The notes under the pieces: generated by a model
Databases searched by the model: none
Told to the model about the DNA's origin: nothing
The model's input: only the letters and a program-made list of their open reading frames with translations
Translations under genes and position numbers: made by a program
Shown: positions 4,179 to 52,826 of the stretch, piece after piece
Numbering within the stretch: the first letter of the stretch is position 1
Layout of the letters: each line of letters opens with the position of its first letter
Origin: Mercenaria mercenaria
Taxonomy: Eukaryota
Reading direction: 5' to 3'
Assembly (NCBI RefSeq): GCF_021730395.1
Contig: NC_069364.1
Location: 83,467,972 to 83,531,971, forward strand
Length of the DNA: 64,000 nucleotides

Positions 4179-4366
4179 CTAACTCCAACTGTGAATATCC
4201 TGGTATGTTGGCAATTTTTCCTGACACTGCTCAGCAACAGTTCCGAGTTGTTCATGTGTCCGTCAGAGATCAAGAGGACATTCTGCATGGAGCTCTCCGG
4301 TTTCATGAGGTAAAAAGTATGCAATGGTCGCACAACCTCTGTGTTACCCATAGTTGCTGAAAGACT
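4179..4366 (-). CDS. PARP4-like exon, VWA domain continued (SLSATMGNTEVVRPLHTFYLMKPESSMQNVLLISDGHMNNSELLLSSVRKNCQHTRIFTVGV)
   Basis: Acceptor ttcttcctgcag and donor GTTAG|GTAAAT. VWA blocks GGT(N/E) and (F/L)..DG are present. At least one small exon between 7655 and 4366 is still missing: the upstream exon ends in phase 1 and this one starts in phase 0. The gene continues below 4179. Confidence 0.7.
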
Positions 4367-4469
4367 CTGCAGGAAGAAAAAAACGATATTATTTCCATGT
4401 TAACCCTTGACCTGCTAAATTTCTAAAATGAACTGGTCCATCTTTCAATTTGAGCAATACCATTCATTA

Positions 4470-4610
4470 TTCAAAGGGGAATATTTACTGACTGAATAGT
4501 GGACAGTGCAGACCATGTGCAGGCTGATCTTGGTCTGCACTGGTCACAAAGGCAGGATCACTTGCCGCCAGCAGGCTTATGGTTAATGTCCTAAATCTAT
4601 AAAAACTCAT
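4470..4610. mobile_element. MITE-like repeat family B
   Basis: Colinear with 12-175, lacking an 11-bp insert. It lies in the PARP4-like intron just upstream of exon 4179-4366. Confidence 0.55.
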
Positions 4611-5649
4611 TATCACTCAATTATATAGAATGGCACTGGGCAACTGTTAAACCAGATATATTTAATAGGGATTAATTTTCATATCTTATAAAATTTATGA
4701 AAATTAGTCCTCACAAAAAAAGTATGATTTTAGATCTAATTACTTTGTAAGAAAAACTGATTACTCCTGTGAGGATTAAATCTGGCTTTTGAAAACTGTT
4801 TTTAAATACTGCAAAATGTTGGCAATGCAAAAATAGGACATTATAGTATTATCTTATTTCACAGTGATACAATGTCAGTATCGAGTTTCCTCAGCAGAAA
4901 ATACCAGTCCTGTTGTCTAGCTATGCTATCAGTCTGTATAAAGATGACCTCAATACATTTTGAATCCACAAATTCAGTGCTGTATTTATCAGTTATAATG
5001 TTCAGATTTTAAGACAAACTATGAGACATTTTTCAAAAGCTATCTTTTACACTGTTCTCAATACAGCAAATGTTAAATGTAGCAATACCTAGCTACAGCA
5101 AAATGTAATGTAATTTCCCTTAAAATGCAAAACTAAATTCATATTTGAACACTGAATGCTTTGTTACATGATGAAGATCTAAATCAAACAGAACCAGGAG
5201 CTGTGTTCAATAAACGCTCGATGTCCCCGGTGGCATCCTTGTCGATACAAAGCAACCTAAGTCCAAAACGAGGTCAAGGTCAAACTGAGGTCAGGTGATG
5301 TCTGAAGATGAGGGATGGTCACAGGTTACATCTGCATTAGTATCAAGTCATTCTAGTTAGGGGTATTGATGCTAGATGAAACAGTCCCATTTGGTTAACC
5401 TCGTACGGACGGACGAATGCATGCACGGACAAACGAAGGGGCATAGAAAGTGGAAACCTACAAGTCATCCAACACAACAAAAATGAAAATGTTGAAAAAC
5501 ATATTTCCTGCACTTATGGAGAATATATCTTTGAAAGTACAGTCAAAACTTAGACAATTTTATCAGCAAGACTGACAACGAAGACAAAACTCCGACTTGT
5601 ACACACAATTTACAAGAAACATCCAGTTTTCCAAACAATACTGTGTCAC

Positions 5650-6080
5650 ACCATGACAAACTCTGATACTGGTTTCATATTTACAACTTACCATGACAAA
5701 CTCTGATGCTGGTTTCATATTGACAACTTACCATGACAAACTCTGATGCTGGTTTCATATTTACAACTCACCATGACAAACTCTGATGCCGGTTTTATAT
5801 TGACAACTTACCATGACAAACTCTGATGATGGTTTCATATTGACAACTTACAATGACATACTCTGATGCTGGTTTCATACTGACAACTTACTATGACAAA
5901 CTCTGATGCTGGTTTCATATTGACAACTTACCATGACAAACTCTGATGCTGGTTTCATATTTACAACTTACCATGACAAACTCTGATGCTGGTTTCATAT
6001 TTACAACTTACCATGACAAACTCTGATGCTAGTTTCATATTACAACTTACCATGACAAACTCTGATGCTAGTCTCATATT
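5650..6080. repeat. Minisatellite, 40-bp unit about 10.5 times (ccatgacaaactctgatgctggtttcatatttacaactta)
   Basis: Exact 40-bp periodicity. Confidence 0.9.
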
Positions 6081-6399
6081 TCCTGCTGTTTTCACAACAC
6101 AAGATGGAAACAATTCTTTCCATGCTGAAAATAAAATGTGTATTATTAAATAAGTTTAGAATATAAGTCATTTAATTGTCAAAATATAGATACTGTCACA
6201 ACTTTATTTTTTTTAGAATTTTTATCCATAAACATTTTTTGTGCCTGTTCTTAAATCAAGGACAAGTTTATGTCACATTTAGGTAAATGGGCAACTGAAA
6301 CAAAATGCTATTAAATCCAAAACTAAAAGTACCAAACAGTCTTATGAGAAGATGCATATTCACAACACCTTTACAAATCAATAAAATTCTATCTCTCCA

Positions 6400-7140
6400 A
6401 CTGAGAGTATCTTTGACCTAGGACTACAAATGAAACAAGAGTGCCAGACTGTCACAAAATACGCCCACCATAGAACTTGGCCTAATTCAAGGGGCATAAT
6501 CCAAGAGTGCCTAGGGGGATTTGGGTGGTTATCATACTTGGCCAAGATATTATGCCCACAAACATTGTCAGCAAGTTTTGGAGAGTATCTTTGACCTAAG
6601 ACTATAAATGAAACAAGAGTGCCAGACTGTCACAAAATACGCCCGTTATCGAACTTGACCTATTCAAGGGCCATATTCCAAGAGTGCCTAAGGCGATTTG
6701 GCTGATTATCGATCTTGGCCGAGATATTATACCCATCAATATTGTCAGCAAGTTTGGTGAAGATCAGACGAAAACTGTCGGACTTGGAGAGCGGACAAAG
6801 CTAAATTTGCAGTTTTTCGAGTAATTCAAGGGCCAAAATCCAACAGTGCCTGGGGCGATTTGGCTGGTTATCGAACTTGGCCGAGATATTATGCCCACAA
6901 ACATTGTCAGCAAGTTTTGTGAAGATCGGATGAAAAATGTTGGACTTAGAGTGGACAAGGCCAAATTCGCAGTTTTTTGAGTAATTCAAGGGCCATAATC
7001 CAAGAGTGCCTGGGGCGATTTGGCTGGTTATCAAACTTGGCCGAGATATTATGCCCACAAACATTGTCAGCAAGTTTGGTGTAGATCCTATGAAAACTGT
7101 TCGACTTAGAGAGCGGACATGCTTTGGATGCTGCCCACTG
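6400..7140. repeat. Tandem array, about 160-180-bp monomer, 4 copies, related to the 145-bp satellite
   Basis: The unit is ..aattcaagggccataatccaagagtgcctggggcgatttggctggttatcgaacttggccgagatattatgcccacaaacattgtcagcaagtttggtgaagatc.gatgaaaa.tgt.ggacttagag.gcggacaa. The segment cattgtcagcaagtttggtgaagatc is homologous to cattctgaccaaaattcatgaagatc in the 145-bp satellite. Confidence 0.85.
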
Positions 7141-7654
7141 CCACGGGTGTTCACATAATATGCCCCGCTCTTTCAGAGACGGGCATATACAAAGGGTCAC
7201 CTTCTAACTAGTTGCAAGAAACCCATGAAAGTTGATGTTAGACTGGAATTCTCACCCAAACATTCTCAAATTACAGAGCAGAAACTATTGATCAATATTA
7301 GGTAATATAACATGTTAGAACACGTTTCAATTTTACTTTGTACACATATTAGTAGAGGGAATGCAGGGCAATCAATAACATTTTAACAGGTGATTCAAAG
7401 CAGATAGTGATAGAAATTTGTACTTTTCTGGGAGACTTTCCCTAAACATAGATGGATGTTCAAATAAAAATCAATGCGAGTATCCTATTGCTCTATGGTC
7501 TTATTGACAAACCCATATTAATGTAGAAAAAAATACTTTTCTATGAGACTCCTTCCCTAAACATAGATGGATGTTCAAGTGAAAATAAGTGGGGTTATCT
7601 TCTGCCTCTCTGGTAATATTGACCAACCCATATTTATATAGAAGAAACATTTAC

Positions 7655-7841
7655 CTGTTCCAAACACAACAACATTAAAGTTCCATGTAGGGGGTAAATG
7701 CTGGAGAGTCAGCAGCAAGACTTTCTTGGCACTGATGATGGCATCACCCTTCATAGAGTTTGACAGGTCCAGAAGTAAAATCACACTGACATCATCCGAC
7801 TCACAGGCCTCAAATTCCGGGTAAAATGTCAGCATACATGC
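7655..7841 (-). CDS. PARP4-like exon, start of the VWA domain with the MIDAS motif (ACMLTFYPEFEACESDDVSVILLLDLSNSMKGDAIISAKKVLLLTLQHLPPTWNFNVVVFGT)
   Basis: Acceptor ctctag and donor GGAACAG|GTAAAT. It carries the D-x-S-x-S metal-ion site (DLSNSM) plus the typical VWA beta1-alpha1 pattern and the FN..(V/I)FG(T/S) block seen in ITIH/VWA5A/PARP4 VWA domains. It overlaps ORF 7575..7835(-). Confidence 0.8.
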
Positions 7842-8179
7842 CTAGAGAACAATAAGGAAATGTACATGTTATTCATAGATCACTGAATCAATATTTAGTT
7901 TGAAATAATAAAATTGATCAACATGAAATTTCTGGTTTATTCCAAGAATGCTATTTTGCCAGAACATAACTTAAGAAAGATGAAATAAATCGGAAATCTA
8001 TAAATACAGATTTGACTTTGCAGACAGATGTGATTTCAAAATCCACCGAAAACAGTGTTATACCTGCTGATTTTGATCATCAGGTTTTCTCTTCACCCAC
8101 AATTCTAGACACATGTATTTCCACTAGATCACTGAGGAGTCACAAAATGTCGACATATTTTCATAATTTCAATACTTAC

Positions 8180-8317
8180 CTGGTGATTTTGGTCATCTGG
8201 TTTTCTCTCGACCCACATTCTAGGCACGTGTATTTCTGCTAGACCAATCAGAAGCTGGAACCCATCGGCAATAGACTCCCCTTCCATCATCTCTACAGTG
8301 GCTTTTGTTAATGTCCT
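8180..8317 (-). CDS. PARP4-like exon, region between VIT and VWA (RTLTKATVEMMEGESIADGFQLLIGLAEIHVPRMWVERKPDDQNHQ)
   Basis: Acceptor gtgatatag, with an in-frame TAG just upstream, and donor CACCAG|GTAAGT. 46 codons in phase 0, leading into the VWA exon. Confidence 0.6.
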
Positions 8318-8920
8318 CTATATCACATAAAATAGCTGATGCAAATCAAATTTGGAAAACTGTAAAAGCTTACTTAAATGCTCATTTTAACAATATAAAT
8401 ATAGAAAGATGTTTGCAATGAATTTATTTTCCCAACCTCTGGAAATTAGAGTCACTTGTGACTTCAAACGAGATGTTAACTTTAAGCAACATAATCTTCA
8501 TATTAATAGCCAGCTACAAAGTACAATTATCATTGTAGTGTATCAAATCATAAAATAAAAAAAAAACTATACAATTATATAGTTCTCAAATCAACAGAGA
8601 AAACCTACTGGTATATTAAGATAGTCTACAGGGACTTTACTTTTTTGTACCCAATCATAACATAAAAGTCTTATGCAATATTCAAGCAAGCATAAGAAAC
8701 CTGTCTGAAGCAATTAAACTTGCATATATTTACCAGAGTACTTGAAACCTAAGAGGAGCAAAAGACATACTGACAGAAGCTGCTGTACCAAAACATCAAG
8801 GCACTTAATGAAGTAGCACTTTTAAACCACAAACTTCCAAAGGAATAACCTTATAAAATTGATTAAAACCCAATAAAACTGCTGATAATCATTTGTGATT
8901 TTTGTCTATTATTAGCTCAC

Positions 8921-9034
8921 CTTGACTTTGATCTTCTGTGAGGGGCATTCAATTGACCTGATGTCAAAGGGCATCTCTATTGAAACCTGCACACTTGTCT
9001 CCCCTTGTGTGACCTCCACTGTCTCAGTTTCATG
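8921..9034 (-). CDS. PARP4-like exon, region between VIT and VWA (HETETVEVTQGETSVQVSIEMPFDIRSIECPSQKIKVK)
   Basis: Acceptor catttacag and donor GTCAAG|GTGAGC. 38 codons in phase 0; the other two frames contain stops. Confidence 0.55.
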
Positions 9035-9870
9035 CTGTAAATGTACTCAAATCATAACTCAAAAAGTCAAACAGATAAATTTTTAGGCACTCTTTTCTTA
9101 CCTCTGAAAATACAGTGAAACCCCTCTAAACCAGAACCCCTGAAAAGTGGTAACCCGTCAAACCACTTCAAACTGAACAAACACCTTGGTTCATAATAAT
9201 GTTCTTTTATTGAAAATAACCACTCTAAATTAGAATATCACTCAAAAGTGAATGTTTCCTTTGGTCCAGAGGTTGTTTTGTATATAGTTGTTCCACTGTA
9301 GCTGCATGCAACGTTATCACAGTTATGATGGACCAAGGTACAGTGATACTAGTGACTATGGACATCACATTTATATAATCCTACATTTTAACCATTCACA
9401 TGGTCTTCATCAGGAATACATGAACTACACACAACAACTGCCTGTGTTATTTCCATCATCTACCTGCACTATCTCATTCAATTACCTATTATTCCATAGT
9501 TAATTACTCAAGTTGTTTTTCTTAATTTATGTGTCATTTCCTATACTATGCTGTTTACTTTCCTTTAACTAACTGCGTAACCTACGCAGCATTCTTTTAA
9601 TAATCTGTCATTGCTCTAAGTTACTTATAGTTAATGTAAACTTGTATTTTAGTTATGTTACTTTTTATATGTAATGAAGTATGTTCAGAGTATGTTATTT
9701 CCCTAATCCCTTACCTGTGTAGTTCAGTCTTGTTTCTCATAAGGACAAGTGCTTTTTCCTTTCGTTATCTGTGTAACTTCCCTTACCTGTGTAGTTTCCA
9801 AATAATACAAGTATTCTTTCTCATGAATACAAGTGTTGTTTCCTTTCATTATCTGAGTCATTTCCCTTAC

Positions 9871-10032
9871 CTGTGTAGTTTCCTTTAAAGAATCTTTCTT
9901 CCATGGAGCGACACTTCCTGGCAATCTGAAACTAACCATCTCCCCTTCTACCTGTAATTCTGCCACATATGTGATCTTGATCAAGACCGTAGCTCCTGGT
10001 GGAAGATTGCCAACACTTACAGTAAACACATC
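9871..10032 (-). CDS. PARP4-like exon, VIT domain continued (DVFTVSVGNLPPGATVLIKITYVAELQVEGEMVSFRLPGSVAPWKKDSLKETTQ)
   Basis: Acceptor gatttcag and donor ACACAG|GTAAGG. VIT-domain block F.V.VGNLPP...V.I.I.YV.EL, 54 codons in phase 0. It overlaps ORF 9724..10029(-). Confidence 0.8.
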
Positions 10033-10835: not shown

Positions 10836-11060
10836 AGGTGTTTCTTCATCTTGGTCCATGAGGTAGGCACCATGACCTTCACTGATTGCTTTCTTATATT
10901 CTTTGTGAGCTTGTTCCTTCTCTTTCACCTCACCAACAATATGTTTACCATTGATAAATGCTTCAAACCCACACACAGCAGCAAGGTCCCCCAGCGGGAA
11001 GACATATTTTGCCTCCAGTGGATTCTTACTGTTGTTCTCATACTCTTGAAGAACTATCAC
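10836..11060 (-). CDS. PARP4-like exon, VIT domain (VIVLQEYENNSKNPLEAKYVFPLGDLAAVCGFEAFINGKHIVGEVKEKEQAHKEYKKAISEGHGAYLMDQDEETP)
   Basis: Acceptor gtttaacag and donor ACACCT|GTAAGT. This is the canonical VIT-domain block (YVFPL...AAV.GFEA.I.GK.I.G...EKE.A...Y..A...G..A.L). It overlaps ORF 10824..11060(-). Confidence 0.8.
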
Positions 11061-11227
11061 CTGTTAAACAACAAAAGTCAAACATCTACATGTTGACTGT
11101 AAAAAAACATGTTGTATTTTTTTTTTATTCAAAGGGTCATAACTTGTGAAAATTCAACTAACTCTAAACCCATTTAATGTGTACAACTAATGACTGTTCC
11201 TGAGAAGTTTCATTTAAATCCTGCCAA

Positions 11228-11480
11228 TAGTGGAAATTATTTTAGAATTAAAATAATTTAATTTATTTTTTCTCAAACTGTTGCTCGTTAATTACCGTCT
11301 GCTAGTTTATTAAACTGTCGTCTGTTTTCGTATATAAACGTGTCATCGATATTGTTACACTTGGCTGATCTGAACTGGTTCCTACTGATACTGGTACCCA
11401 GTCGATATAATATAAATACCAATAATCTCGTGCAGTTCTCTCACATTTTGCTAGCTACACCGTCGGTAACGTCAAAACTA
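11228..11480. repeat. About 250-bp duplicated promoter-like segment P, copy 1 (copy 2 at 16074-16320)
   Basis: ggaaattattttagaattaaaataatttaatttattttttctcaaactgttgctcgttaattaccgtctgctagtttattaaa.tgtcgtctgttttcgta.ataaacgtgtcatcgatattg...gatataatataaatacc...ctacaccgtcggtaacgtcaaaacta is over 98% identical between copies. Copy 2 abuts the end of repeat R copy A. Confidence 0.85.
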
Positions 11481-14400: not shown

Positions 14401-15206
14401 TGCACGGGTTTTTCATTTACATATGGGTTTCGTCATAAATAAACTGTTAGACGGCTGTCGAAATAATTGTGCTACCCGAGACAAGCGGGCTCTATCGACA
14501 AAGTTTTTAATAAAGGTCAAATGCGACTGCTTCCCGTGCACGATATACGAGGAATACGAGTTGAAAATATGTTAGACTTTGTTTATTGTATCATACTTTG
14601 GTTTGTTTATGTGAGCAAACGATTAACATACAAATTGTTCAAGTTTCATACTTGTCCGTAGTTGAGAACAAATATGCGTATATAAAATTTCAAAACAATG
14701 AAATATGTATCTATCAAAACCCGTTATTTCAGAATTAAGGAATAGAAATCGGGTCACATAAATTTTTCTATAGGCGCAGACAAAATGTCTTCTGTATGTG
14801 CATTAATTATCTCAATTAATAGAGAAATGATCGTAAATTCAGGACTTCTACTCGTTAATCTGGAGTAAAATGTCAGTTTTTTCTTTTTTCTGCAGTTTCA
14901 GCCAAATCTTTAAAAGGGGAGCTTGTACTGTCTAATTGTTGATGCAAGTTATATCAAAATCATAGCTTTGGAAGTTGTAAGATTAGATTTAGTAATATAT
15001 GGCCCACCGCAAGTTAGTTTATTCAGGTGGCAAATTCATTATAATTAGGCTTGATATTGATGCTATGCCACATTTTGTTTCGGTCAGATGGAATACATTA
15101 TAAGAAAGTAGGACTACAGTTTTTTGGTGATTACATAAAAGATGGTTTTTTTTAAGAATAGTTTGAAAGGCCGTAGAATTTTGGCGGATAAATTATAAAT
15201 TTATTG

Positions 15207-16072
15207 TGGCGGTAAAGTTCTGTCGGCCGTGAGGTGAGCGGATACGGTGTCTGTATGTTTGCATTCAAGTTGCGTACTTTGGGGTATCATATGTTTACCA
15301 GTTTGTGTTAACTGGATAGTAAAAGGTTTTGCCCTAGTACTTGGCAATTCCTAGTGTTGCGTGTGTTGCGTACGTTGCGTTGCTCTCAGTGGTGTCACTT
15401 TGCCTTGCCTTGCCTTGCCTTGCCTTTCATTGACTCGTGTTGCGGTTTTGCTCATTCTCGGTGAAACCCGAAATGGGTGGAATGGTAGCTCGACGTTCAA
15501 TTGAAATTGTTGTGTGTTTGCATTTGAGTGATACCTGTTATAAAGTGCAAAGTGTCTTGTGTTGCTTTGCCTTTGAGTGACACCTGTTACAAAGTACAAA
15601 GTGTCTTGCGTTACTTTGCGTTGTTTGAGTGATACCTGTTACAAAGTACAAAGTGTCTTGCATTGCTTTGCCTTGTGGTCCGTTGTGTTATACTGCCTCG
15701 CTTTACATTGGCTAGGGTTGTGCATTTGACCGCATCCCGGTGACACCCGGGCTGGGTTGGATTCACAATTCGAAGTTCGATGGATTGCGCAGTTGCGTTG
15801 TTTTTGCAAGCCTTGGGTTGGTGCGTCTGTTCTCCTCTCGGTCGACGGATTTTGCTGTGCTTTTAACGACTCTACACGGTGAGACCCTTGTTGAGTCATG
15901 AGCGGCCGATCAACTCCCAATATTGTCAATATACTTTTACTGAATTTAATTAAATTATTACAAAATGTATCATGCGTATGTTTAACTATCGTTGAAAGTA
16001 TCAATGCATATTCTTGATGAATAAAGAGTGTTGTATGAGATAATTGGTTTTTTATTTGAGTAATAAAATAAT
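15207..16072. repeat. 866-bp direct repeat R, copy A (copy B at 17354-18213), inside the 7.8-kb PARP4-like intron
   Basis: tggcggtaaagttctgtcggccgtgaggtgagcgg...gagtaataaaataat is over 98% identical between copies. It contains a ccttg microsatellite and three 60-bp internal subrepeats (gagtgatacctgttacaaagtacaaagtgtcttgcgttactttgc). Confidence 0.9.
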
Positions 16073-16073
16073 G

Positions 16074-16320
16074 GAAATTATTTTAGAATTAAAATAATTT
16101 AATTTATTTTTTCTCAAACTGTTGCTCGTTAATTACCGTCTGCTAGTTTATTAAATTGTCGTCTGTTTTCGTAGATAAACGTGTCATCGATATTGTTACA
16201 CTTGGCTGATCTGAACTGGTTCCTATTGATACTGGTACCCAGTCGATATAATATAAATACCAATAATCTCGTGCAGTTCTCTCACATTTTGCTAGCTACA
16301 CCGTCGGTAACGTCAAAACT
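16074..16320. repeat. Duplicated promoter-like segment P, copy 2
   Basis: See copy 1. Confidence 0.85.
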
Positions 16321-17353
16321 ACCCGCCCGCCACACCCTGTATTTATAGGAAACTTTCGAAACATAGAGTTTTGCATCTTTAATTTCGGGCTAGTATGGTA
16401 GTTTTAACAACTTGCTAGAATACTTTGTCAGTATTTTATATACACTTTACTGATCTATTTATGTTGATCTTACATCATCTGTGGAATGTTTTATGAAATT
16501 GGTTCAAAGTTGTATAGGAAATTTGCATAAAGTCCATCTATTTAACAATAGCTAACGTTGATGTTCTAGTTCAAGTTAATTGTTATTGTCCACCCGGTCT
16601 TGACGACTGAGTTGTTAGGTACTGCCGTCTTTTTACTTACAATTGCAGGGTTAAACCGTGCCAAAGTAAATTGATGAGGGTGATATACCGGAGAGCAATA
16701 ACACTGCAGAAGATAACACATCCAGCCATCAAAATGTATGACGGGGCTAGATGTCATCTTGTTACGTGACCAATGACTTCCAAATGTGAGATGTTCATAC
16801 CGTGTTATGAAGAAAAAACTGAGACATTTTGATGCAGTGTATATAAATTTTGTTATTTAAGAAAACAGTTTAGCATGGGCGTGACTATATTTGTATAAGA
16901 CTCTCCAGTATAATTTGAAAGATTTTATACTTCTTTAAAAAGGCACGGGATAGTTGATTGATATTAATATACGTATTTCTAGTATTAAAATATATAAACT
17001 AAATGTACAAGAAGACAATAGTGAAGTAATAAAATTATTAGAATAAGTTTCACTTTTTAAGTTAAATGTTTCGTATTGACATGAAATTCAAGGACAGGAA
17101 AATAATTATAGGAAGTATTGACTGTCGTAAATATTATTTCATGTGAACTTAAAAACTTTGTGATCACAGTTGGATATCACTAAGAAAATTCTGCTATTAT
17201 TTGTGGTAACAATTATTATGTAGGACACTGGCTTTTTAACTGTGACATTTGATAGACCTTAATATTAGTTTTTCTTCATCTTGTCATAATACTATAAGTA
17301 AAAGGTGTTTATTTATAATACTGGCTTGATGGATATTGTCGCTCATAATATGT

Positions 17354-18213
17354 TGGCGGTAAAGTTCTGTCGGCCGTGAGGTGAGCGGATACGGTGTCTG
17401 TATGTTTGCATTCAAGTTGCGTACTTTGGGGTATCATATGTTTACCAGTTTGTGTTAACTGGATAGTAAAAGGTTCTGCCCTAGTACTTGGCAATTCCTA
17501 GTGTTGCATGTGTTGCGTATGTTGCGTTGCTCTCAGTGGTGTCACTTTGCCTTGCCTTGCCTTGCCTTTCATTGACTCGTGTTGCGGTTTCGCTCATTCT
17601 CGGTGAAACCCGAAATGGGTGGAATGGTAGCTCGACGTTCAATTGAAATTGTTGTGTGTTTGCATTTGAGTGATACCTGTTATAAAGTGCAAAGTGTCTT
17701 GTGTTGCTTTGCCTTTGAGTGACACCTGTTACAAAGTACAAAGTGTCTTGCGTTACTTTGCGTTGTTTGAGTGATACCTGTTACAAAGTACAAAGTGTCT
17801 TGCATTGCTTTGCCTTGTGGTCCGTTGTGTTATACTGCCTCGCTTTACATTGGCTAGGGTTGTGCATTTGACCGCATCCCGGTGACACCCGGGCTGGGTT
17901 GGATTCACAATTCAAGTTCGATGGATTGCGCAGTTGCGTTGTTTTTGCAAGCCTTGGGTTGGTGCGTCTGTTCTCCTCTCGGTCGACGGATTTTGCTGTG
18001 CTTTTAACGACTCTACACGGTGAGACCCTTGTTGAGTCATGAGCGGCCGATCAACTCCCAATATTGTCAATATACTTTTACTGAATTTAATTAAATTATT
18101 ACAAAATGTATCATGCGTATGTTTAACTATCGTTGTAAGTATCAATGCATATTCTTGATGAATAAAGAGTGTTGTATGAGATAATTGGTTTTTATTTTGA
18201 GTAATAAAATAAT
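17354..18213. repeat. 866-bp direct repeat R, copy B
   Basis: See copy A. The spacing between copies is 2147 bp. Confidence 0.9.
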
Positions 18214-18871: not shown

Positions 18872-19002
18872 TTAAACCCACCTCAGATGCAAGGTCCATC
18901 AATTTTGCTCTGACATGTACAGATTTAAGATTCACAGGCACATCATCATTACAAACAAGACCAGCCTTGACCTTTGACATAGGGTCAACAATGTCCTTGA
19001 CA
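18872..19002 (-). CDS. PARP4-like exon, linker and start of the VIT domain (SLKDVKDIVDPMSKVKAGLVCNDDVPVNLKSVHVRAKLMDLASE)
   Basis: Acceptor ttgttgcacag and donor TCTGAG|GTGGGT. The pattern VP..LKSV.V.... continues without a break, in phase 0, into the exon at 11060 after a 7.8-kb intron. Confidence 0.7.
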
Positions 19003-19821
19003 TCTTTCAGACCTGTGCAACAAAGTAATGATATAGAACACTTGTAAAATCCTAAAAGTCAATATCCTTCTTTCATTTTAACATTTAAGATATATCTTAT
19101 ATAAGTAAAAGATACAAATACTAACTCATTTTGAAAATACAAGAAAAAGATACAAATACTTATTAATTTTGGATTTGTATAAATGTACAGTCTAACATAC
19201 CTGTAAAAACCACCCTTTGGAAATGAAGAATATGGTCTTTGTTGACAGGACTGGTAGTCCCTCAACAAAGATAAATTTACACTATTAGAGTGTCATCGGG
19301 GAAAGGAAATTGTGGCCTTTATAGACAGGTTTTGTAGTAGGGCTCTTTATTCGGAGTTGGTCTTTAGCAAAAGTCAGAATATTATTAAATTCAAGATTTT
19401 CACTGATATAAGCATTTTCATAACTTGAGTATTTACAAGAAAAGAATATTTTGAAAAGAAAACTACAATGCTGATATAGTTCACTGATTAAGCGTTCAAT
19501 CTAATTATATTTCTTGAAGATAATATTTCAGATAAGATCATAAACACTGTTGTACTGTACCTATAACAATATGTTATTGTAGAAGAAGACCTCTATAAGC
19601 TGTTGCTTTCGGCTCTGATACTTTTTCAGGCATTATCTTCTGTACTATGTATCATGAATTGTAAATACTGCAATCATTGTTTGAAATAACCTACATATGT
19701 ATGTTTAAACTAATGCTGATATGTTTACACCAAAAATTGTTATAAAATAGGGATATAATCTGAGTTTTACTAAACCGATCTGGAATTTGGCACTTTATTG
19801 TGTATGTGATTTAATACATAC

Positions 19822-19975
19822 TGATTTCATTAGCATCTTCATCATCTAACTCTGATATTTCCTCTGTATTTACATATTCTTCAAAAGTCTCTTTAATCAC
19901 ATCAGTATCGGTTGTAAACTCCACCAGATATTTCAGTCTCTGTTGATCCGGACTGTACACAACATACTCATCATT
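19822..19975 (-). CDS. PARP4-like exon following the catalytic domain (NDEYVVYSPDQQRLKYLVEFTTDTDVIKETFEEYVNTEEISELDDEDANEI)
   Basis: Acceptor ctgcacag and donor ATCA|GTATGT, in phase with the neighbouring exons. The block E(Y/F)VVY...Q....YL..F is the usual end of a PARP catalytic domain. Confidence 0.6.
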
Positions 19976-20034
19976 CTGTGCAGTATAAGTATATACATGT
20001 AGTTTTGGTTAAGCTTATAAGTAACACCAAATCC

Positions 20035-20457: not shown

Positions 20458-20641
20458 CTTGAAAGCAGACGGAAATTCTTCAGATGTTTTCACACCATGA
20501 ATACTGTGGTAACCTTCAGGTGCACAGGTCAAGGTCAAATCCTTTTGATACATAGTTTTGCAGTTGCCAAGGGCAACCTCACTAACTAGCATGAATCTTG
20601 TACCCTTCTTTTGACTTGGAGAGGAATAGCCCACACTAGTA
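20458..20641 (-). CDS. PARP4-like exon, catalytic domain C-terminal part (TSVGYSSPSQKKGTRFMLVSEVALGNCKTMYQKDLTLTCAPEGYHSIHGVKTSEEFPSAFK)
   Basis: Acceptor tttattttag and donor TTCAAG|GTAAGT. PARP signature (L/M)L.CEVALG...L......P.G.HS..G. It overlaps ORF 20440..20634(-). Confidence 0.8.
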
Positions 20642-21191: not shown

Positions 21192-21290
21192 CTGGCTGCA
21201 CTTGCGAAGTAAATTCCTGAACCAAGCATGCCTGGATCAGACCTTGTACCTCCATGGTCGTCAACCACAACTCTAGGCATTAATAATCCT
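21192..21290 (-). CDS. PARP4-like exon, catalytic domain (GLLMPRVVVDDHGGTRSDPGMLGSGIYFASAA)
   Basis: Acceptor gttttag and donor CCAG|GTAAAA. The GSGIYFA motif is the PARP-family G(K/S)GIYFA nicotinamide-pocket block. Confidence 0.75.
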
Positions 21291-21866: not shown

Positions 21867-22004
21867 CTTGACAAGATTCCTACGATATTATTGGCCTTGG
21901 AAGCATGGAAGAGAAGTTGTTTATTGGGAATATCACATGTGAAATTGGTGCTCTCCACTGGACGATTCACAGCAAATACTGCCTGAATTTTTATAGTACA
22001 GTCT
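21867..22004 (-). CDS. PARP4-like exon, catalytic domain (DCTIKIQAVFAVNRPVESTNFTCDIPNKQLLFHASKANNIVGILSR)
   Basis: Acceptor tttatttcag and the non-canonical donor TCAAG|GCAAGT, a GC-AG intron. The sequence follows the PARP block LL(W/F)HGS..N..GIL..GL, and the frame gives ...ILSR+GLLMPRVV with the next exon. Confidence 0.7.
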
Positions 22005-22885: not shown

Positions 22886-23046
22886 CCAGTTAGTGACTCC
22901 TCTATCAGCTGTTTGACAGTATGGAATTCAGTACTTGTTGTACTTAAACTGTCAATCCCACATCTTAGAGCTCTATATTTAGCTGGTGTACTTGCTCGCA
23001 GGGAGAAGTCTGTGGCTTCACTAACTGATATCATGTCCTTCACCAG
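22886..23046 (-). CDS. PARP4-like exon, start of the catalytic domain (LVKDMISVSEATDFSLRASTPAKYRALRCGIDSLSTTSTEFHTVKQLIEESLT)
   Basis: Acceptor gttttacag and donor ACTGG|GTGAGA. PARP signature ...Y.AL.C.I..L...S.EF..I..Y. The exon ends in phase 2 and completes a Gly codon with the next exon. Confidence 0.65.
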
Positions 23047-23788: not shown

Positions 23789-23962
23789 CTGACAGATATC
23801 TTGTTTCCTTGACAACCAGTATTTAGTAGGTACCATCACTCTATACTGATGCCTGTGGGGGAGTGCAATATAGAACTCATTCATCAGCTTAAAAATCTTA
23901 CTGCTATCCCCGCTGTCTAGGGCAGACTTGATCTGCTTCAAAATGGCTTCAGCTTTATTAAT
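23789..23962 (-). CDS. PARP4-like exon, PARP regulatory domain part 2 (INKAEAILKQIKSALDSGDSSKIFKLMNEFYIALPHRHQYRVMVPTKYWLSRKQDICQ)
   Basis: Acceptor tctag and donor TGTCAG|GTACGA. It contains the PARP regulatory-domain hallmark F-Y-x-x-(I/L)-P-H. It overlaps ORF 23747..23941(-). Confidence 0.65.
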
Positions 23963-24727
23963 CTAGAATATCGAAGGTTAAAATTTTATGTGAGTCATAA
24001 TTAAGAAATAATATATCTCATTCAGTGATCTGTCAGTGAATAAAATCATTGTTTGGAGTTCAGATGCGAAGGAAATAGATCACAAGGGCACAGCACAAGT
24101 GATATATTAATACACATCTGAACAATAAACAATGATCTTATTCAAGAGAAAATCATTAAATGAGATATATTATTTTGATTTTAACACATTATCAAGGTAT
24201 ATTATCTACATCTTTGAAAATATTCAACAAATACTTGCTGTTTTTCCCACAGGCTGCTATGACATTTTACACTATGACGTTAAAATTGTGACGTAAAATC
24301 GGTGAGTGTTGCATAATATTAAACAGTTTCGATCTTCTTTAGTTTAACAGGGAAATGAATCGGGCAGTGTTAGAATACTGAATATAATAACCTCACAAAT
24401 ATGAAAATGACATTGCGCAAAAGAATTTTTTTCACTGACACTGGAGACTTTTATTTCACTTTTACCATACTCATTTACATGCATATTAGAATGTACTTTC
24501 AGAATTTGCATAAGGCAAGAACAAAATGAGGGAAAGGCAACTTTTCTATGTACATCACAATACTCCTACGTATTATTTCTTGACACCTTCTGTGCCAACA
24601 AAACAAATTCAAAAGCACTACTCCATGTTAACAATAATCTTTGAAATAGAGAAAACCTAAATAAATCTACTCCAAAATGTATTACCTTGTCCTGTTGTTA
24701 TAACAAATCTAATATTAAATTGAATAC

Positions 24728-24865
24728 CTGTTCTTCCTTGATACTGGTGACATTACTGGAGAGAATTGTTTCCACTTCCTCGTTAGCTTCTAGCCATATA
24801 TGTTCTACCAGACATCCAACATCTTCTGTCATACTGCCACACTCCAAACCTAGCTCCCCCATCAT
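24728..24865 (-). CDS. PARP4-like exon, PARP alpha-helical regulatory domain part 1 (MMGELGLECGSMTEDVGCLVEHIWLEANEEVETILSSNVTSIKEEQ)
   Basis: Acceptor cactag and donor AACAG|GTATTC. 46 codons in phase 0, continuing into the FY..LPH exon. Confidence 0.55.
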
Positions 24866-25417: not shown

Positions 25418-25665
25418 ATGATATGAGCCGAGCCATGAGAAAACCAACATAGTGTGTTTGCGACCAGCATGGATCCAGACCAGCTTGCACATCCACGCAG
25501 TCTGGTCAGGATCCATGCTGTATGCTAACAGTTTCTCTAATTCCAATAGGCTTTGAAAGCGAACAGCATGGATCCTGACCAGACTGCGCGGATGGGCAGG
25601 CTGGTCTGGATCCATGCTGGTCGCAAACCCACTATGTTGGTTTTCTCATGGCATGACTCATAATT
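25418..25665. mobile_element. Palindromic MITE family A, long copy
   Basis: Same termini as the copy at 1027, with an internally duplicated palindrome core (ggatccagaccagc.tgcacatcc.cgcagtctggtcaggatccatgctg). It shares extended flanks (atatgagccg.gcc) with the copy at 57176. Confidence 0.7.
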
Positions 25666-25842: not shown

Positions 25843-25998
25843 CTGTTTAAATTTTTCTGATCCAATATGCCTGGAGAAAAGGTCATGGGTCAAGGTCATA
25901 CCAAGTTGCTGCTGTTCTCTGTATAAATGACTGAATACTGCCAAAGTCTCATCTACTGTGTTACAGAACCTGAATTCTGTTGTGCCCGGTGCCCCTTT
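25843..25998 (-). CDS. PARP4-like exon, WGR-like region (KGAPGTTEFRFCNTVDETLAVFSHLYREQQQLGMTLTHDLFSRHIGSEKFKQ)
   Basis: Acceptor ctcatacag and donor AAACAG|GTATTA. 52 codons in phase 0, consistent with the downstream exon at 24865. Confidence 0.5.
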
Positions 25999-26811
25999 CT
26001 GTATGAGAACAAATACACAGCTACATTATATTTCATATTTATTTCTTCATTTGTTTGCTTGTATGGATTTGATATTAATTTACAACAGTAATTCAGTTAT
26101 GTAACTGTGGTCAGTTAACCTGACTAATGTTCATAGATTCTGCACCAGACCTAACTCCATCTCCACCAGTTAGTTACACAACTTGTCCACATTAATAACG
26201 GTGAAAGACAAACAACTTCATACACATTGATTTCTTTTAAACTGTAATGAAGAACATTAAAAAAATTTCCTTGCTTTTGAATCAACCTTTATGACTTCCT
26301 GATGCACAGTTCTTATGCTATTCATTCAAATAAACTTCCCTATCACAACACAACTGTGTGTAATGTAATACCAGATTTCCTGCAGACCACAAAATGTAGT
26401 TATCTGAAGAAAACAGTTGTCGTAGCATATATTGTGTTTGTGTCATGCATTGGCAATGCAGTATGTGCCTGATGTTCCATACATATGTGACTAGCATGCT
26501 ATTTACAGATATCCAATGCCCAATTTTCACTCAAATATTTTATCTTTAGATATTTAATTTCAAATGTAGCAAAGGCCACATCAAATGTATTTAACTTTAC
26601 TAAGTATGTAAATCAATTGTGTATGTAGAACTTCATGCTTCATTAAATGCCATACAGTAACACTAATTATGTATTATTATGTTTAAAAAAAACAAAACTT
26701 TAAGTTCTTTCTAGTGGTAGCACATATTAATACTGTGTTTAGCTTTACACGTATTAAATGTGACACTGTACTTTTTCAAACCTACATAGCACTGTCAAGT
26801 CAGAGTGTATA

Positions 26812-27138
26812 TCAAAATCCCCTTGATCAAAATCCCCTCCACTGAAAAATGACTGGGTGTTACAAAATCCCCTTCACACATTTGCAGGGGGTATCATAAT
26901 CCCCTCTGTGATTAACGTTATAGATATATAGATATCAGTGCTCCAAATTATATTATGTTTGCTAAAGGCATTGTATTTACGTGCTTTATGCAATAGACTT
27001 TTAAGTTGTATATAGTTGTATTTGAACTTGATGAAATAAGTAAAAATCACAGAGGGGATTATGATACCCCCTGCAAAAGTATGAAGGGGATTTTGTAACA
27101 CCCTGTCATTTTTTAGTGAAGGGGATTTTGATCAAGGG
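26812..27138. mobile_element. MITE with about 105-bp terminal inverted repeats
   Basis: The left arm atcaaaatccccttgatcaaaatcccctccactgaaaaatgactgggtgttacaaaatcccctt...cagggggtatcataatcccctctgtgatt is the reverse complement, at about 95%, of 27035-27138. The interior is about 115 bp. Confidence 0.7.
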
Positions 27139-27327
27139 GATTTTGATTGTCTCCCGTCAAGTCACATAAACATGTTATTTTATGTTTTATAGAATCATAT
27201 CAATACACAAACACTTTGTCAATATTGCAGTGTTCTTCAATCATATTTCAGCTCTCTGTCATTAATTACGTCTTTCTTAGTGAAATATACTTTTTTTGGA
27301 GAACTATTAGTTTTGTTTTCATTTTTG

Positions 27328-27585
27328 TTGGGTTTAACGTCACAAACACAATTATAGGTCATCTGGCAACCTTTCAGCTTTGATGGTGAAGTCCCCAGGT
27401 GCCCTTCCATGCATTATTTCATCACAGGCGGGCACCTGGGTAGAACCACCAACATTCCGTAAGCCAGCTGGATAGCTTCCTCACATGAAGAATTCAACGC
27501 CCCGAGTGAGGCTCAAACCTACATTGATGAGGGGCAAATGATTTGAAGTCAGAGACCTTAACCACTAGGCCACAGAGGCCCCTTT
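27328..27585 (-). mobile_element. tRNA-derived SINE family 1
   Basis: The rc begins aaggggcctctgtggcctagtggttaaggtctctgacttcaaatca (tRNA-like D- and T-box regions) and ends cctataattgtgtttgtgacgttaaaccc. It is about 90% identical to the copies at 29724 and 59020. Confidence 0.75.
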
Positions 27586-27649
27586 GTTATGGAACTCATC
27601 AGTTGTAATCAAACTATCAACAATTATTACTGTTCAGTATTCATCTGCA

Positions 27650-28500
27650 TGTTAACCTTTAGCCTACTGGTTGCAAGTGATGTTGCCTTTGTGGCCAGTG
27701 TAGATCAAGATCAGCCTGCATGCTAACCTTTAGTCTACTGACTGCAAGTGATGTAGCCTTTGTGGCCAGTGTAGATCAAGATCAGCCTGCATGTTAACCT
27801 TTAGCCTACTGACTGCAAGTGATGTTGCCTTTGTGGCCAGTGTAGATCAAGATCAGCCTGCATGTTAACCTTTAGCCTACTGACTGCAAGTGATGTAGCC
27901 TTTGTGGCCAGTGTAGATCAAGATCAGCCTGCATGTTAACCTTTAGCCTACTGACTGCATGTGATGTTGCCTTTGTGGCCAGTGTAGATCAAGATCAGCC
28001 TGCATGTTAACCTTTAGCCTACTGACTGTAAGTGATGTTGCCTTTGTGGCCAGTGTAGATCAAGATCAGCCTGCATGTTAACCTTTAGCCTACTGACTGT
28101 AAGTGATGTTGCCTTTGTGGCCAGTGTAGATCAAGATCAGCCTGCATGTTAACCTTTAGCCTACTGACTGCAAGTGATGTTGCCTTTGTGGCCAGTGTAG
28201 ATCAAGATCAGCCTGCATGTTAACCTTTAGCCTACTGACTGCAAGTGATGTTGCCTTTGTGGCCAGTGTAGATCAAGATCAGCCTGCATGTTAACCTTTA
28301 GCCTACTGACTGCAAGTGATGTTGCCTTTGTGGCCAGTGTAGATCAAGATCAGCCTGCATGTTAACCTTTAGCCTACTGACTGCAAGTGATGTTGCCTTT
28401 GTGGCCAGTGTAGATCAAGATCAGCCTGCATGTTAACCTTAGCCTACTGACTGCAAGTGATGTAGCCTTTGTGGCCAGTGTAGATCAAGATCAGCCTGCA
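27650..28500. repeat. Satellite, about 62-bp monomer, about 14 copies, derived from MITE family B
   Basis: The unit ttaacctttagcctactgactgcaagtgatgttgcctttgtggccagtgtagatcaagatcagcctgcatg is the rc of the family-B segment gcaggctgatcttggtctgcactggtcacaaaggcaggatcacttgc..cagcaggcttatggttaa. Confidence 0.85.
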
Positions 28501-28801
28501 TGTCCCTGCATGCTCACCTTGGTCTGCACTGTTCCACAAGTCTGTAAATTTTCAGTGAACACCCCTTTGAATAATAAGTGGTACTTCTCAAAATGAATGA
28601 TGGACCAGTCCATTTTAGAACTATAGCAAGGTAAAGGTTACCAGTAAGTTATAGTTAACATCCAAGAACCACAGACAAATTATTAAATGGTTAAGTGATT
28701 GCTGTCACTCTGTAAGTTTTTTACTAACAGCACAAACACCCTATTTGCCGTCAAAATACTTAAAGAACCCCAGAAACTATCCTAGAAGTCTTAATACTTA
28801 C

Positions 28802-28936
28802 TTCCACAGTGTTCAGTGTACCAGAATGGGAGGTAACTCTGTATTTATGGCTCGTGCCAGAGTTACCTGCACTGAATGTTTCATCAACATGGACTTCTAG
28901 AACAGCAAATGTTTTTCGTACCTTCTTTTCTGTCTT
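28802..28936 (-). CDS. PARP4-like candidate exon (KTEKKVRKTFAVLEVHVDETFSAGNSGTSHKYRVTSHSGTLNTVE), region between BRCT and WGR
   Basis: A 45-codon open frame bounded by acceptor atttacag and the strong donor GTGGAA|GTAAGT, phase 0 at both ends. The domain assignment is uncertain. Confidence 0.4.
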
Positions 28937-29723
28937 CTGTAAATCAAAACATTCAGTATGAGCTAATCTCTAATGCAATTCCATAAAATATTAATTTTTG
29001 CTTTTCACTCAAACTTAGAAATTAAAGATATAAAACTCTACTCATTAGTGTCATTTTCCAAGTAAGCTTATCAACAATGATAGTATACAAATATAAAGTA
29101 TTGATCTTTTGCTATTTTCTTTAGCGCATACCCGTTAGTTTTCTAAGTGTCTGAAATACATAACACATTAGCAGGGCAACTGAATTCTGGAATATGCTTT
29201 ATGACCAAAGAATAGTACTATGGTGTTCTGAAATATTTGAGCTATTTGCAGACTGATCTAAGTACAACTGAATTTGGCGCCTTGGATTCAGACCTGGTTA
29301 AATCGTGGCTTATAAAGAAAGCCACATCACTGTTATAGTCTAAGACGGATCCTACTATTAAACTACTTTGAACCAGTGTTCTACTCTTTTATTTGCCAAA
29401 AGTTAGGAACATCATTCTGAAATCAAGGTCACAAAGGAATAAACCAGAAATGTAATGAGATATGCATTACCTCCCCTTTAAAGAGGGCAAATTTTGCAAT
29501 TTGGAAATCCTTGGTGAAAGTAGGACAGTTTTTGTCATCTTGTTTCCACATCTTGAAGCTGCTTATGTTAATAAAGGGTTTGATACTTTTCTTTTTGTCC
29601 TTTTTCTGAAATCTGGAGGCTGAAGATATAAAGAGCAACTAAATATTTTAAACCTTAATTTGAGGTAAGACTTTTTGTTAATCATCAAATTGATGTACTG
29701 TATGCTGATACCCTCATTTTTTG

Positions 29724-29986
29724 TTGAGTTTAATGTCACACGACACAATTATAGGTCACATGGTGACTTTACAGCTTTCCATGGTGGAGGAAGATCCCAG
29801 GTGCCCATTCAGGAATTATTTCATCACAGGCCGAGGCACCTGGGTAGAACCACCAACTTTCTGTAAGCCAGATGGATGGCATCCTCACATGAAGAATTTA
29901 TGCCCCAAGAGAGGCTTGAACCCATACTGATGAGAAGCAAGTGATTTTGAAGTCAGCAACCTTAACTCCTCCACAACAAAGGCCCC
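29724..29986 (-). mobile_element. tRNA-derived SINE family 1
   Basis: Same family as the copy at 27328. It lies in a PARP4-like intron. Confidence 0.75.
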
Positions 29987-30998
29987 AGGTCAAACAGAAC
30001 TTTGGGATATTGATGGAATTAAACAAAATGGGAAATACAGAAAATGGTGATATTTATTTCCCATATATACATGTTCTGAAGATATAAAAAACTTGAAATA
30101 TGTACACTGCTTGTACAAATACTGATATTTGATTGATAGATTTCAAAATATTCAAACAATGACCGCCCTACCATCCAATATCATCTAAGACACCCCAACT
30201 CATGCATTTAAAACGCGGAAATTCTGTAAGAAATGTTTACTCTTTTTGAGACCTTTAAATCAAAATGACCTTATGCATTCCATGCTACAGAATTTAAACA
30301 TTTTGCTCTAATTATACCAACACTGTTTGCACTGATCATGGGCATGTTTTAAGTTTTTCCGAGATCAATACAATTGATCTCAGTTATATACATTACCTAC
30401 TTGTAGGAACAAATTATACAAACAGACTAGATATATTGCTTTTGGTAAACACATTTATCTCTCAGTAAGACCTCAATGGCTTCCTTAAGCAATGATATTA
30501 AGGTGTATACATAACTTTATATGTGTGCATATAAATAGATACTGTGAAATCATTTAATTTCCAGGGCATGAAATTTCGTGATTTTGGTCAAAACGGCAAT
30601 TTCGTGGGGATATGAATTCGTGGATTTCAATTTTTGATTTGTTTGAACATACAATATATGGCAATTTTATTTTTTCGTTGCAATGGGATCAAATTTCGTG
30701 GATTGACTCAACCACGAAATCCACGAAAATTAGTCCCCCACAAATATTAATGATTTCAAAGTATTGTTCTACCTAACATTTGTAAGCACTATTTTTTAAA
30801 CCACCACAATTTAATTACATCCTTTATTCATGCTGTTGCAACCTGCTCTAATGATTTCTGTATTGCAAATTAAGGCCTAGAGCTGATAGTTTACAGTCTC
30901 TCCTGTTCAACTGAATTTTACAACATGATCTTTTTTAATATTTTTAATGACCCTGTGTATAAATCTACTTTAAAACATTATTTTAATATACTATATAC

Positions 30999-31197
30999 CT
31001 GATATCTTTCCTTCCTTGAGTCCCTCAGATTTAGATTTTCCCGCCATCAAATAGTCATCTGTACTGAGCTGGTGCCCGGCTTCAATACTCATCTTGATCC
31101 AGTCTACAGACACAACCGGAAAACCGTACTTGGCCGCCATTTTACATTTATATGAGAATTCTGCCTTCTTGCTATCATCACACACAACATGTGTACT
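30999..31197 (-). CDS. PARP4-like exon: BRCT domain C-terminal half (STHVVCDDSKKAEFSYKCKMAAKYGFPVVSVDWIKMSIEAGHQLSTDDYLMAGKSKSEGLKEGKIS)
   Basis: Acceptor catattcag and donor CAG|GTATAT. The BRCT signature (THVV..., GFPVVS.DWI..SI..G..L...DY) overlaps ORF 30991..31185(-). Confidence 0.7.
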
Positions 31198-31721
31198 CTG
31201 AATATGTAAATATATATATGTATGGGTATCACAATAAAAAGGACCACCACGATAGATTTCCTCAAAACCTTTTCTAGTGGTTAAGCTGTCCAGTGAGAAC
31301 CTTTTTTGTATATCTGCATCATAGTTTAATGAAAGAGCATGTTAATACAGTAAACGAAAATAGATTAAGCAGTTTTTAATATATTAAGTGCCTTTTCTAC
31401 CACATTCTGTATTGTACTGATGCAAAAACAGAGTTTCCAAATTTTAGTGTGAAGACAGCTTAAGTTCTGTTAGTGCCTCAGTCCTGGTCATCAATGACAT
31501 TTTTTTTTTCTTTGATTTTACAGGATCTTGAAAAACTTTTATTTCAGACAGAAAATTATGTTCTGGAATATAAATTAAATTGCTATAGCATAGTACATAG
31601 TAATAAGAGGATTACTTTCTATCTATCTTCAGTTGGTATAATGCATGTGATTTTATCTCCATACTAATGTTCAATCAGATCTTCAGTTCCCAAAACTTAC
31701 AGAATGTGTAATTTGACATAC

Positions 31722-31850
31722 CTTTTTAGTAACAATGAAAGAAACGATGCCTCCATTTGATGTTATATCCTTTCTTATAGCTGTTTTTTCTTTAAACTTG
31801 ACAGCTGTGGTCAAATCTAGAACAATCTGACAGCCTTCAAACAATGCCAT
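31722..31850 (-). CDS. PARP4-like gene, first coding exon: ATG at 31850..31848, BRCT domain N-terminal half (MALFEGCQIVLDLTTAVKFKEKTAIRKDITSNGGIVSFIVTKK)
   Basis: Minus-strand translation is open for 43 codons from the ATG and is followed by a GTATGT donor (plus 31716-31721). The motif ...NGG.VS...T followed in the next exon by STHVV is a typical BRCT start. The frame joins the next exon in phase 0. Confidence 0.55.
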
Positions 31851-52821: not shown

Positions 52822-52826
52822 AGTGT

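Follow-up and report, generated by a model that had tools for sequence, protein, structure and literature searches.

A probable PARP4 ortholog in a 64-kb stretch of the Mercenaria mercenaria genome

Human PARP4 has been described as a BRCT-WGR-HD-ART-VIT-vWA-MVP-ID protein, in which a helical domain (HD) precedes the ADP-ribosyltransferase (ART) domain (Frigon and Pascal, PMC10711553). Structures are available for its HD-ART part (PDB 8SX1 and 8SX2), its ART (8SWY), and the vault complex (9BW6 and 9BW7). Acceptor-site changes, chiefly Thr484 where PARP1 has Lys903, limit the human enzyme to mono-ADP-ribose (PMC10711553), and its residence in vaults depends on the C-terminal MINT domain (PMC12280208). 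Here we analyzed a 64,000-nucleotide stretch of Mercenaria mercenaria contig NC_069364.1 (forward-strand positions 83,467,972 to 83,531,971; hereafter the window, numbered from its first letter). On sequence comparison we hold it highly probable that the minus strand from 31850 to 1201 encodes the 5′ two-thirds of a single intact protein-coding PARP4 ortholog, a member of PARP Clade 5A.

Identity and domain architecture of the predicted protein

The spliced product aligns over residues 2-1101 in one stretch to residues 4-1094 of the 1724 in human PARP4 (E = 4e-217), far above PARP1/2 and ITIH4, bearing out the PARP4 identity that an earlier note had proposed from the letters of the window alone. 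The best match per family scores 726 bits for human PARP4 versus 92 for PARP2 and 52 for ITIH4, and the next solved-structure matches are partial, covering the catalytic part only for PARP2 and PARP1 (E = 1e-25 to 1e-17) and VIT-vWA only for ITIH4. With the human HD-ART crystal construct 8SX1, the alignment covers residues 251-582 of the model (E = 6e-71).

A rough concatenation of the visible fragments retrieved 426 database relatives, with E-values down to 3e-200, the top ones bearing PARP4 or PARP4-like names and coming from gastropods, oyster, corals, Trichoplax, fish, and tetrapods. The listed relatives are all shorter than ~1200 residues and do not include human PARP4 (1724 residues), so full-length relatives apparently lie outside the searched set. 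The mollusc PARP4-like proteins compared here are those of Pomacea canaliculata, Candidula unifasciata, Lottia gigantea (LOTGIDRAFT_119348), Saccostrea cucullata, and Solemya velum; no near-identical protein was found in the searched set. Identity to the model in an alignment of seven proteins is 54% for the Pomacea PARP4-like protein, 53% for Candidula, 48% for a coral, 43% for Solemya, and 36% for a mammal. Over VIT-vWA alone, identity is 60-66% to Saccostrea, Pomacea, Candidula, and Lottia, the nearest relatives being about equally distant (66% oyster, 65% gastropod). Scanning both strands of the 64 kb with a family hidden Markov model (HMM) gave only noise (E > 1) outside the exon chain, and hence no second PARP4 copy or plus-strand gene.

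Pfam places the domains in the order the earlier note had predicted: BRCT at 3-80 (39.8 bits, cut-off 21.3; BRCT_2 34.8 bits), PARP_reg at 297-368, PARP at 398-575 (E = 6e-36), VIT at 634-746 (E = 1e-37), and VWA_3 at 882-1031 (E = 2e-19). This architecture of PARP, VIT, and vWA agrees with the vPARP definition (PMC2964712). The motifs quoted in the note all lie at their given places on the minus strand (table 1). The H-Y-E triad (H447, Y487, E557) falls in invariant columns of the seven-protein alignment, as do D887, S889, and S891, so that the DxSxS metal-ion-dependent adhesion site (MIDAS) is intact as the note had it. The catalytic Glu is the E of NDEYVVY in exon E12; LVSEVALG is a conserved core motif and contains no triad residue.

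The model resembles human PARP4 in its domain order, its H-Y-E triad, the Thr at the PARP1 K903 position, a Lys at the human K516 position, and the DxSxS MIDAS. It differs in having Met for human N471, Lys-Asn for human Glu544-Asp545, and a BRCT motif of S-F-I rather than S-F-S; at the W-G-R position of PARP1 the model has S-G-T and human PARP4 F-L-L. The last ~630 residues of human PARP4, which include MINT, have no counterpart inside the window.

Other PARPs and the inter-α-trypsin-inhibitor-type proteins share parts of this architecture only. PARP1, PARP2, and PARP3 are homologous to the model over HD-ART (E = 1e-25 to 1e-13), and their WGR domains show a weak, register-consistent similarity to the segment before the HD. 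However, their ART is C-terminal, whereas in the model more than 520 residues follow the ART, including VIT-vWA. The model is without zinc fingers, and its W-G-R is not conserved. The inter-α-trypsin-inhibitor-type proteins share with the model a VIT and, after it, a MIDAS-bearing vWA, and ITIH4 aligns to residues 634-1095 (E = 2e-13). In ITIH and VWA5A proteins, however, VIT-vWA forms the N-terminal core, and BRCT, helical domain, and ART are missing; the model has all of these in one chain of consistent frame, its VIT beginning at 624, after BRCT, HD, and ART.

PARP4-type proteins form a well-established clade in animals (PMC2964712), and public annotation already names members from molluscs. 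The gene is of a known kind, and its annotation is routine, with no new mechanism. Its value is mainly that of a correct annotation, recording the architecture, the catalytic and metal-site residues, and the intron positions kept in a mollusc-like lineage. Such retention fits the known spread of the vPARP clade in animals (PMC2964712).

Exon chain and shared intron positions

Exons were matched by tblastn with four mollusc PARP4 proteins, which gave 19 colinear high-scoring segment pairs on the minus strand (E = 1e-5 to 1e-35 per exon). The family HMM, built from 98 relatives, returned the same chain plus a weak exon at ~25.9 kb. Donor and acceptor pairs were picked to keep the frame and to reproduce the residue spacing of relatives, and the remaining gaps were filled by local alignment of homolog segments against intron translations. 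The result is 22 coding exons from 31850 down to 1201, with 3306 coding bases, or 1102 codons, without a stop (table 1). Of the 21 introns, 20 have GT-AG borders and the remaining one, after E9, is GC-AG with a consensus donor; all phases agree, which upholds the note on both borders and phases.

The chain covers more than 30.6 kb within the window, exceeding the span of over 27 kb first proposed. Both end points set by the note are exact, 31850 falling on the first letter of the start ATG and 4179 closing an exon. Its minus-strand chain stands, but its count of 18 exons between those points is too low, as we found 20. The exon it had predicted between 7655 and 4366 is E19. Of the exons it had expected in 26-31 kb, E4 lies in that range and E5 just below it. 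The 3′ end lies below 4179 as anticipated, with E21 and E22 before the gene leaves the window. No further exon was found in 1-1200 with four C-terminal reference pieces (E <= 100, word size 2), that stretch being mostly dispersed repeat. Since E22 ends in a donor and 1-1200 holds no exon, the gene runs off the window.

Table 1. Coding exons, sequence motifs, and intronic elements of the window (residue numbers refer to the spliced product; a slash marks an exon-intron border).
Feature	Position	Strand	Content	Evidence
E1	31722..31850	-	ATG start; BRCT N-terminal half, residues 1-43	tblastn vs Pomacea P0001 residues 1-43, E = 2.7e-10; donor AAG/gtatgt; intron position and phase as Solemya
E2	30999..31197	-	BRCT C-terminal half, residues 44-109	tblastn E = 2e-12; acceptor ttcag/, donor CAG/gtatat; intron common to Solemya
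E3	29471..29619	-	Basic linker and WGR-like start, residues 110-159	tblastn E = 2.9e-5; junction GKISA as Pomacea
E4	28802..28936	-	135 nt; WGR-like core strand HKYRVTSHSGTL, residues 160-204	Top local-alignment fragment in intron vs 17 homolog segments; acceptor ttacag/, donor GAA/gtaagt; 3′ intron common to Solemya
E5	25843..25998	-	WGR-like helix, residues 205-256	Weak family HMM match, E = 0.61; aligns to homologs; acceptor catacag/, donor CAG/gtatta; both introns common to Solemya
E6	24728..24865	-	Helical (regulatory) domain start, residues 257-302	tblastn E = 4.6e-6; intron common to Lottia and Solemya
E7	23789..23962	-	Helical domain with EFYIALPH, residues 303-360	tblastn E = 1.4e-9; Pfam PARP_reg 297-368
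E8	22886..23046	-	Helical domain end, residues 361-413	tblastn E = 1.1e-9; donor by length match to Lottia; intron common to Lottia
E9	21867..22004	-	ART, catalytic His (LLFHAS, NIVGILS)	tblastn E = 2.8e-9; GC donor AAG/gcaagt rebuilds ILSRGLL exactly; H447 invariant
E10	21192..21290	-	ART, GSGIYFA (Tyr of H-Y-E)	tblastn E = 5e-10, 76% identity; Y487 invariant
E11	20458..20641	-	ART, LVSEVALG; Thr at PARP1 K903 / human T484 position	tblastn E = 1.7e-12; alignment to human PARP4
E12	19822..19975	-	ART end, catalytic Glu (NDEYVVY), then acidic linker	tblastn E = 3.1e-5; E557 invariant; linker 33 residues, as Pomacea
E13	18882..19012	-	VIT start, residues 606-649	tblastn E = 4.3e-8; Pfam VIT_2 from 624
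E14	10836..11060	-	VIT core (YVFPL...AAVCGFEAFINGK) after 7.8-kb intron	tblastn E = 1.9e-35, 87% identity
E15	9871..10032	-	VIT end (FTVSVGNLPPG)	tblastn E = 6.5e-23; donor CAG/gtaaggga, duplicated downstream
E16	8921..9034	-	VIT-vWA inter-region	tblastn E = 1.1e-7
E17	8180..8317	-	VIT-vWA inter-region (HVPRMWVE)	tblastn E = 1.4e-14
E18	7655..7841	-	vWA start, MIDAS D887-L-S889-N-S891	tblastn E = 1.5e-15; D887, S889, S891 invariant
E19	6051..6124	-	74-nt vWA exon (AWKELFPSCVVKTAGNMRLASEFVM)	Local alignment vs 14 homolog segments; acceptor ttttcag/, donor ATG/gtaagt; Lottia exon also 74 nt, phases equal
E20	4179..4366	-	vWA (GNTE..., LISDGH)	tblastn E = 9.9e-17
E21	1676..1775	-	vWA end	tblastn E = 1.5e-9; introns common to Lottia and Solemya
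E22	1201..1371	-	Post-vWA region, last exon in window	tblastn E = 8.3e-21; terminal donor ATG/gtaaat matches Lottia/Solemya intron position and phase
EFYIALPH	within exon 23962-23789	-	Motif located	
LLFHAS	21916-21899	-	Motif located	
NIVGIL	21889-21872	-	Motif located	
GSGIYFA	21223-21203	-	Motif located	
LVSEVALG	20589-20566	-	Motif located	
YVFPL	11006-10992	-	Motif located	
AAVCGFEAFINGK	10982-10944	-	VIT motif located	
FTVSVGNLPPG	10026-9994	-	Motif located	
DLSNS (MIDAS)	7769-7755	-	Motif located	
tRNA-like element head	27498-27579	-	Adjoins 71-bp satellite	Rfam tRNA 27.4 bits, E = 8.5e-4
Satellite, 71 bp	27645-28503		12 copies, 97% match	
Satellite, 160 bp	6483-7111		3.8 copies	
Satellite, 145 bp	2112-3694		10.9 copies, 86% match; fills most of E20-E21 intron	

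Introns were compared on a three-way protein alignment, after exact mapping of the proteins of Lottia gigantea and Solemya velum to their own loci. All 16 Lottia introns of the shared range fall at the same column and in the same phase as in the model. Of the model's 21 internal introns, 18 recur exactly in Solemya, another two agree in phase and to within 2-3 columns where the alignment is gappy, and one differs; a further intron is present in Solemya only. In both species an intron coincides with the donor that follows E22. The positions and phases are thus identical with Lottia and nearly all shared with Solemya, and this intron structure strongly supports reading the exon chain as one gene. 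The Lottia gene occupies ~10 kb, compared with more than 30.6 kb here for a similar coding length.

Several points weigh against reading the chain as an intact PARP4 ortholog. The C-terminal third, MINT included, is encoded past the left edge of the window, an edge that corresponds to human residue ~1094, and closer full-length relatives may exist outside the matches listed, none of which exceeds ~1200 residues. At three junctions, each with two sites that are in frame or of equal phase, the exact site was chosen by homolog length and site quality, the alternatives being an E5 donor at 25843 or 25834, an E8 donor at 22886 or 22898, and the E2/E3 pair. Scanned as part of the whole protein, PARP_reg scores 25.9 bits, just below the Pfam cut-off of 26.8; the fragment scanned alone reaches 28.2 bits. 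Finally, Pfam WGR was found neither in the model fragment nor in any of 16 homolog segments at E <= 10.

The segment concerned is that between BRCT and HD, which the earlier note had called WGR-like. In human PARP4 the WGR was itself assigned from sequence analysis and AlphaFold, and it is without the W-G-R residues (PMC10711553). A profile of the segment run against PDB sequences matched human PARP4 141-236 (E = 1e-26) and no PARP1/2/3 chain. For direct profile comparison the PARP1, PARP2, and PARP3 WGR sequences were verified against PDB chains, and hhalign gave 51% against the PARP1 WGR and 48% against the PARP1/2/3 WGR alignment (E ~2e-4), a weak match in a consistent register. In that register YRVTSHSGTL lies over YWIFRSWGRVG, and the downstream helices align too. 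The description as WGR-like draws on homology to the human segment of that name and on the hhalign values of about 50%, with no family-level match; we consider the label weakly supported, if reasonable.

Predicted catalysis, vault association, and alternative readings

By analogy with the human enzyme (PMC10711553), the ART fold would bind NAD+ through H-Y-E and transfer single ADP-ribose units to targets. We expect its product to be mono-ADP-ribose and not poly-ADP-ribose, since Thr occupies the PARP1 K903 position, as T484 does in the human enzyme; the model's AASTSVGY aligns to the human SLSTSIKY that contains this residue. The BRCT is likely to be a nucleic-acid-binding module, given that the human one is an RNA-binding module, and VIT-vWA with its intact MIDAS would serve as a metal-dependent protein-interaction module.

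Acceptor-site positions vary among invertebrate orthologs, as seen with proteins P0001, P0002, and P0003, and in the model they fall at residues ~480-557, in exons E10-E12. At human N471 the mollusc and coral proteins of the alignment have Met, which is the state of PARP1/2. The T484 position is Lys, the PARP1 K903 state, in the three gastropod proteins and Thr in the model, Solemya, coral, and two aligned vertebrates. The comparative value of the locus is that invertebrate PARP4 differs from the human enzyme at several of the acceptor-site positions invoked for the mono-ADP-ribose limit.

The 2025 vault structure paper (PMC12280208) raises the question whether invertebrate PARP4 sits in vaults at all. 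The protein could be a PARP4 ortholog by descent that acts outside vaults, as a free cytoplasmic or nuclear mono-ADP-ribosyltransferase, in which case "vault PARP" would misdescribe its function. Lodwick et al. (2025, PMC12280208) describe PARP4 as a component of the vertebrate vault, suggest that it was a late vault occupant, and find the MVP residues that contact PARP4 conserved only in vertebrates; human residues 1587-1661 belong to the modeled part of MINT, and contact with MVP is made by S1614, K1618, Q1682, and R1689 (PMC12280208). The MINT domain is not in the window, but the window also holds nothing that contradicts a MINT further downstream, and Citarelli et al. (2010, PMC2964712) found the vPARP architecture in vault-bearing animals only. 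We regard a life outside vaults as unlikely and use "vault PARP" here as a family name that would apply by orthology.

A decaying or nonfunctional copy, that is, an unprocessed pseudogene, is very improbable. Its introns are crowded with satellites and transposon remnants, and the amplified decoy donors at two exons, described below, could derail splicing. Against this, the reading frame runs through all 22 exons without stop or frameshift, every splice site is canonical, the catalytic and MIDAS residues are kept, and the exon of the VIT core is up to 87% identical to relatives.

The data contradict a pair of neighboring genes, one PARP1/2-like (BRCT-WGR-HD-ART) and one ITIH/VWA5A-like (VIT-vWA), joined only in the note's reconstruction, for although a 7.8-kb repeat-rich intron parts E13 from E14 and VIT-vWA alone matches ITIH1 (E = 3e-12) as well as ITIH4, that intron lies inside the VIT domain (junction at residue 649, VIT_2 from 624 and VIT from 634), one codon is divided between E12 and E13 (phase 1), and the acidic linker has the length of that in Pomacea. 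In addition, a single colinear alignment to human PARP4 takes in the entire chain, and its intron positions are those of single annotated Lottia and Solemya genes. The PARP and VIT/vWA parts, which the note had allowed might prove to belong to separate genes, stand in one chain.

Amplified donor sites, intron repeats, and remaining features of the window

Two exons of the PARP4 gene end in amplified donor sites. A 40-bp tandem array on the minus strand (5650..6081; Tandem Repeats Finder, 10.8 copies, 93% match) begins inside E19, and its unit repeats the last ~30 nt of the exon together with the donor, giving nine extra GT[AG]AGT donors. These decoys read tttgtcatg/GTAAGTTGT and close variants and recur every 40 nt, at 6012, 5972, and on to 5692. 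Use of the first (6012) would lengthen the exon by 39 nt in frame and add VSCNMKLASEFVM; the later ones lead to premature stops. At E15 an 84-bp duplication (minus strand, 9715..9883) comprises the exon end and donor, with three copies of actacacag/gtaaggga. Its second donor (exon end 9787) would add 84 nt in frame without a stop, that is, 28 residues, and the third (9715) is preceded by a stop.

A dispersed element that had landed at exon borders was considered as the source of these repeats and rejected: each unit is confined to its own site in the window, and the copied exon ends align to conserved homolog residues. The confinement of the units to the E15 and E19 sites indicates local duplications of exon-intron boundaries rather than inserted elements. 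Should the spliceosome use the decoys, the lineage would have PARP4 isoforms whose vWA and VIT-vWA linker carry insertions, and the donor-site minisatellite might throttle output through nonsense-mediated decay; separately, the mollusc ortholog may be no vault component. We put this combination forward as speculation that is probably wrong.

At 32-40% G+C the window is AT-rich, and it resembles an animal genome in its short open fragments and many repeats. The introns are filled with repeats, as the earlier note had reported: four satellites, inverted repeats resembling miniature inverted-repeat transposable elements (MITEs), and the tRNA-like head of a short interspersed element (SINE). The 145-bp satellite yields a ladder of similar minus-strand open reading frames (ORFs) of 55-58 residues, which are not genes. 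The tRNA-like head and the adjoining 71-bp array look like a SINE-type element whose internal segment expanded into a satellite. The 71-bp unit recurs once, inverted and with similarity in its flanks, at 4398-4586, and 689-761 holds a diverged copy of the tRNA-like head.

The 7.8-kb intron contains direct repeats at 15202-16072 and 17349-18213 (~870-1010 bp, 97-100% identical, spaced ~2142 bp apart), and a 255-bp segment at 11226-11480 is repeated 4.8 kb away at 16067-16321 with 98% identity. These repeats may be the termini of a small non-autonomous retroelement, or else the outcome of a recent segmental duplication; the longest ORF there has no Pfam match. Pairs of inverted repeats with the size and shape of MITEs occur at 26811-27147, 25422-25662, 32438-32627, and 24006-24175, with arms of 61-105 nt that are 80-95% complementary and 31-131 nt apart. 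One arm family recurs at 1060-1165, and similar translated motifs are found around 57.2 kb.

A neighboring gene was sought in 32-64 kb, and the ten longest ORFs, two intronic ones among them, have no Pfam match. The only signals there are a reverse-transcriptase fragment and one tRNA-like match. The former belongs to frameshifted reverse-transcriptase fragments of a decayed retrotransposon at ~51300-52830 on the minus strand, of which 51847-52062 matches Pfam RVT_1 (E = 1.7e-5). The latter, at 60750-60819 on the plus strand, is the sole tRNA call in the window, tRNA-Ser(CGA) by ARAGORN, with 30 bits for Rfam tRNA (threshold 29). With a score so close to the threshold and repeats all around, this call may mark a tRNA-derived repeat and not a functional gene. 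The window's two longest ORFs, at 48950-49447 and 49925-50365 on the minus strand (165 and 146 residues), have no Pfam match and share a nearly identical stretch of ~120 residues, and are probably two copies of an uncharacterized repeat. The region 36001-40000, which has no ORF longer than 81 residues, shows a strong strand asymmetry unlike the rest of the window, with a GC skew of -0.26 and an AT skew of +0.24 at 36-38 kb.

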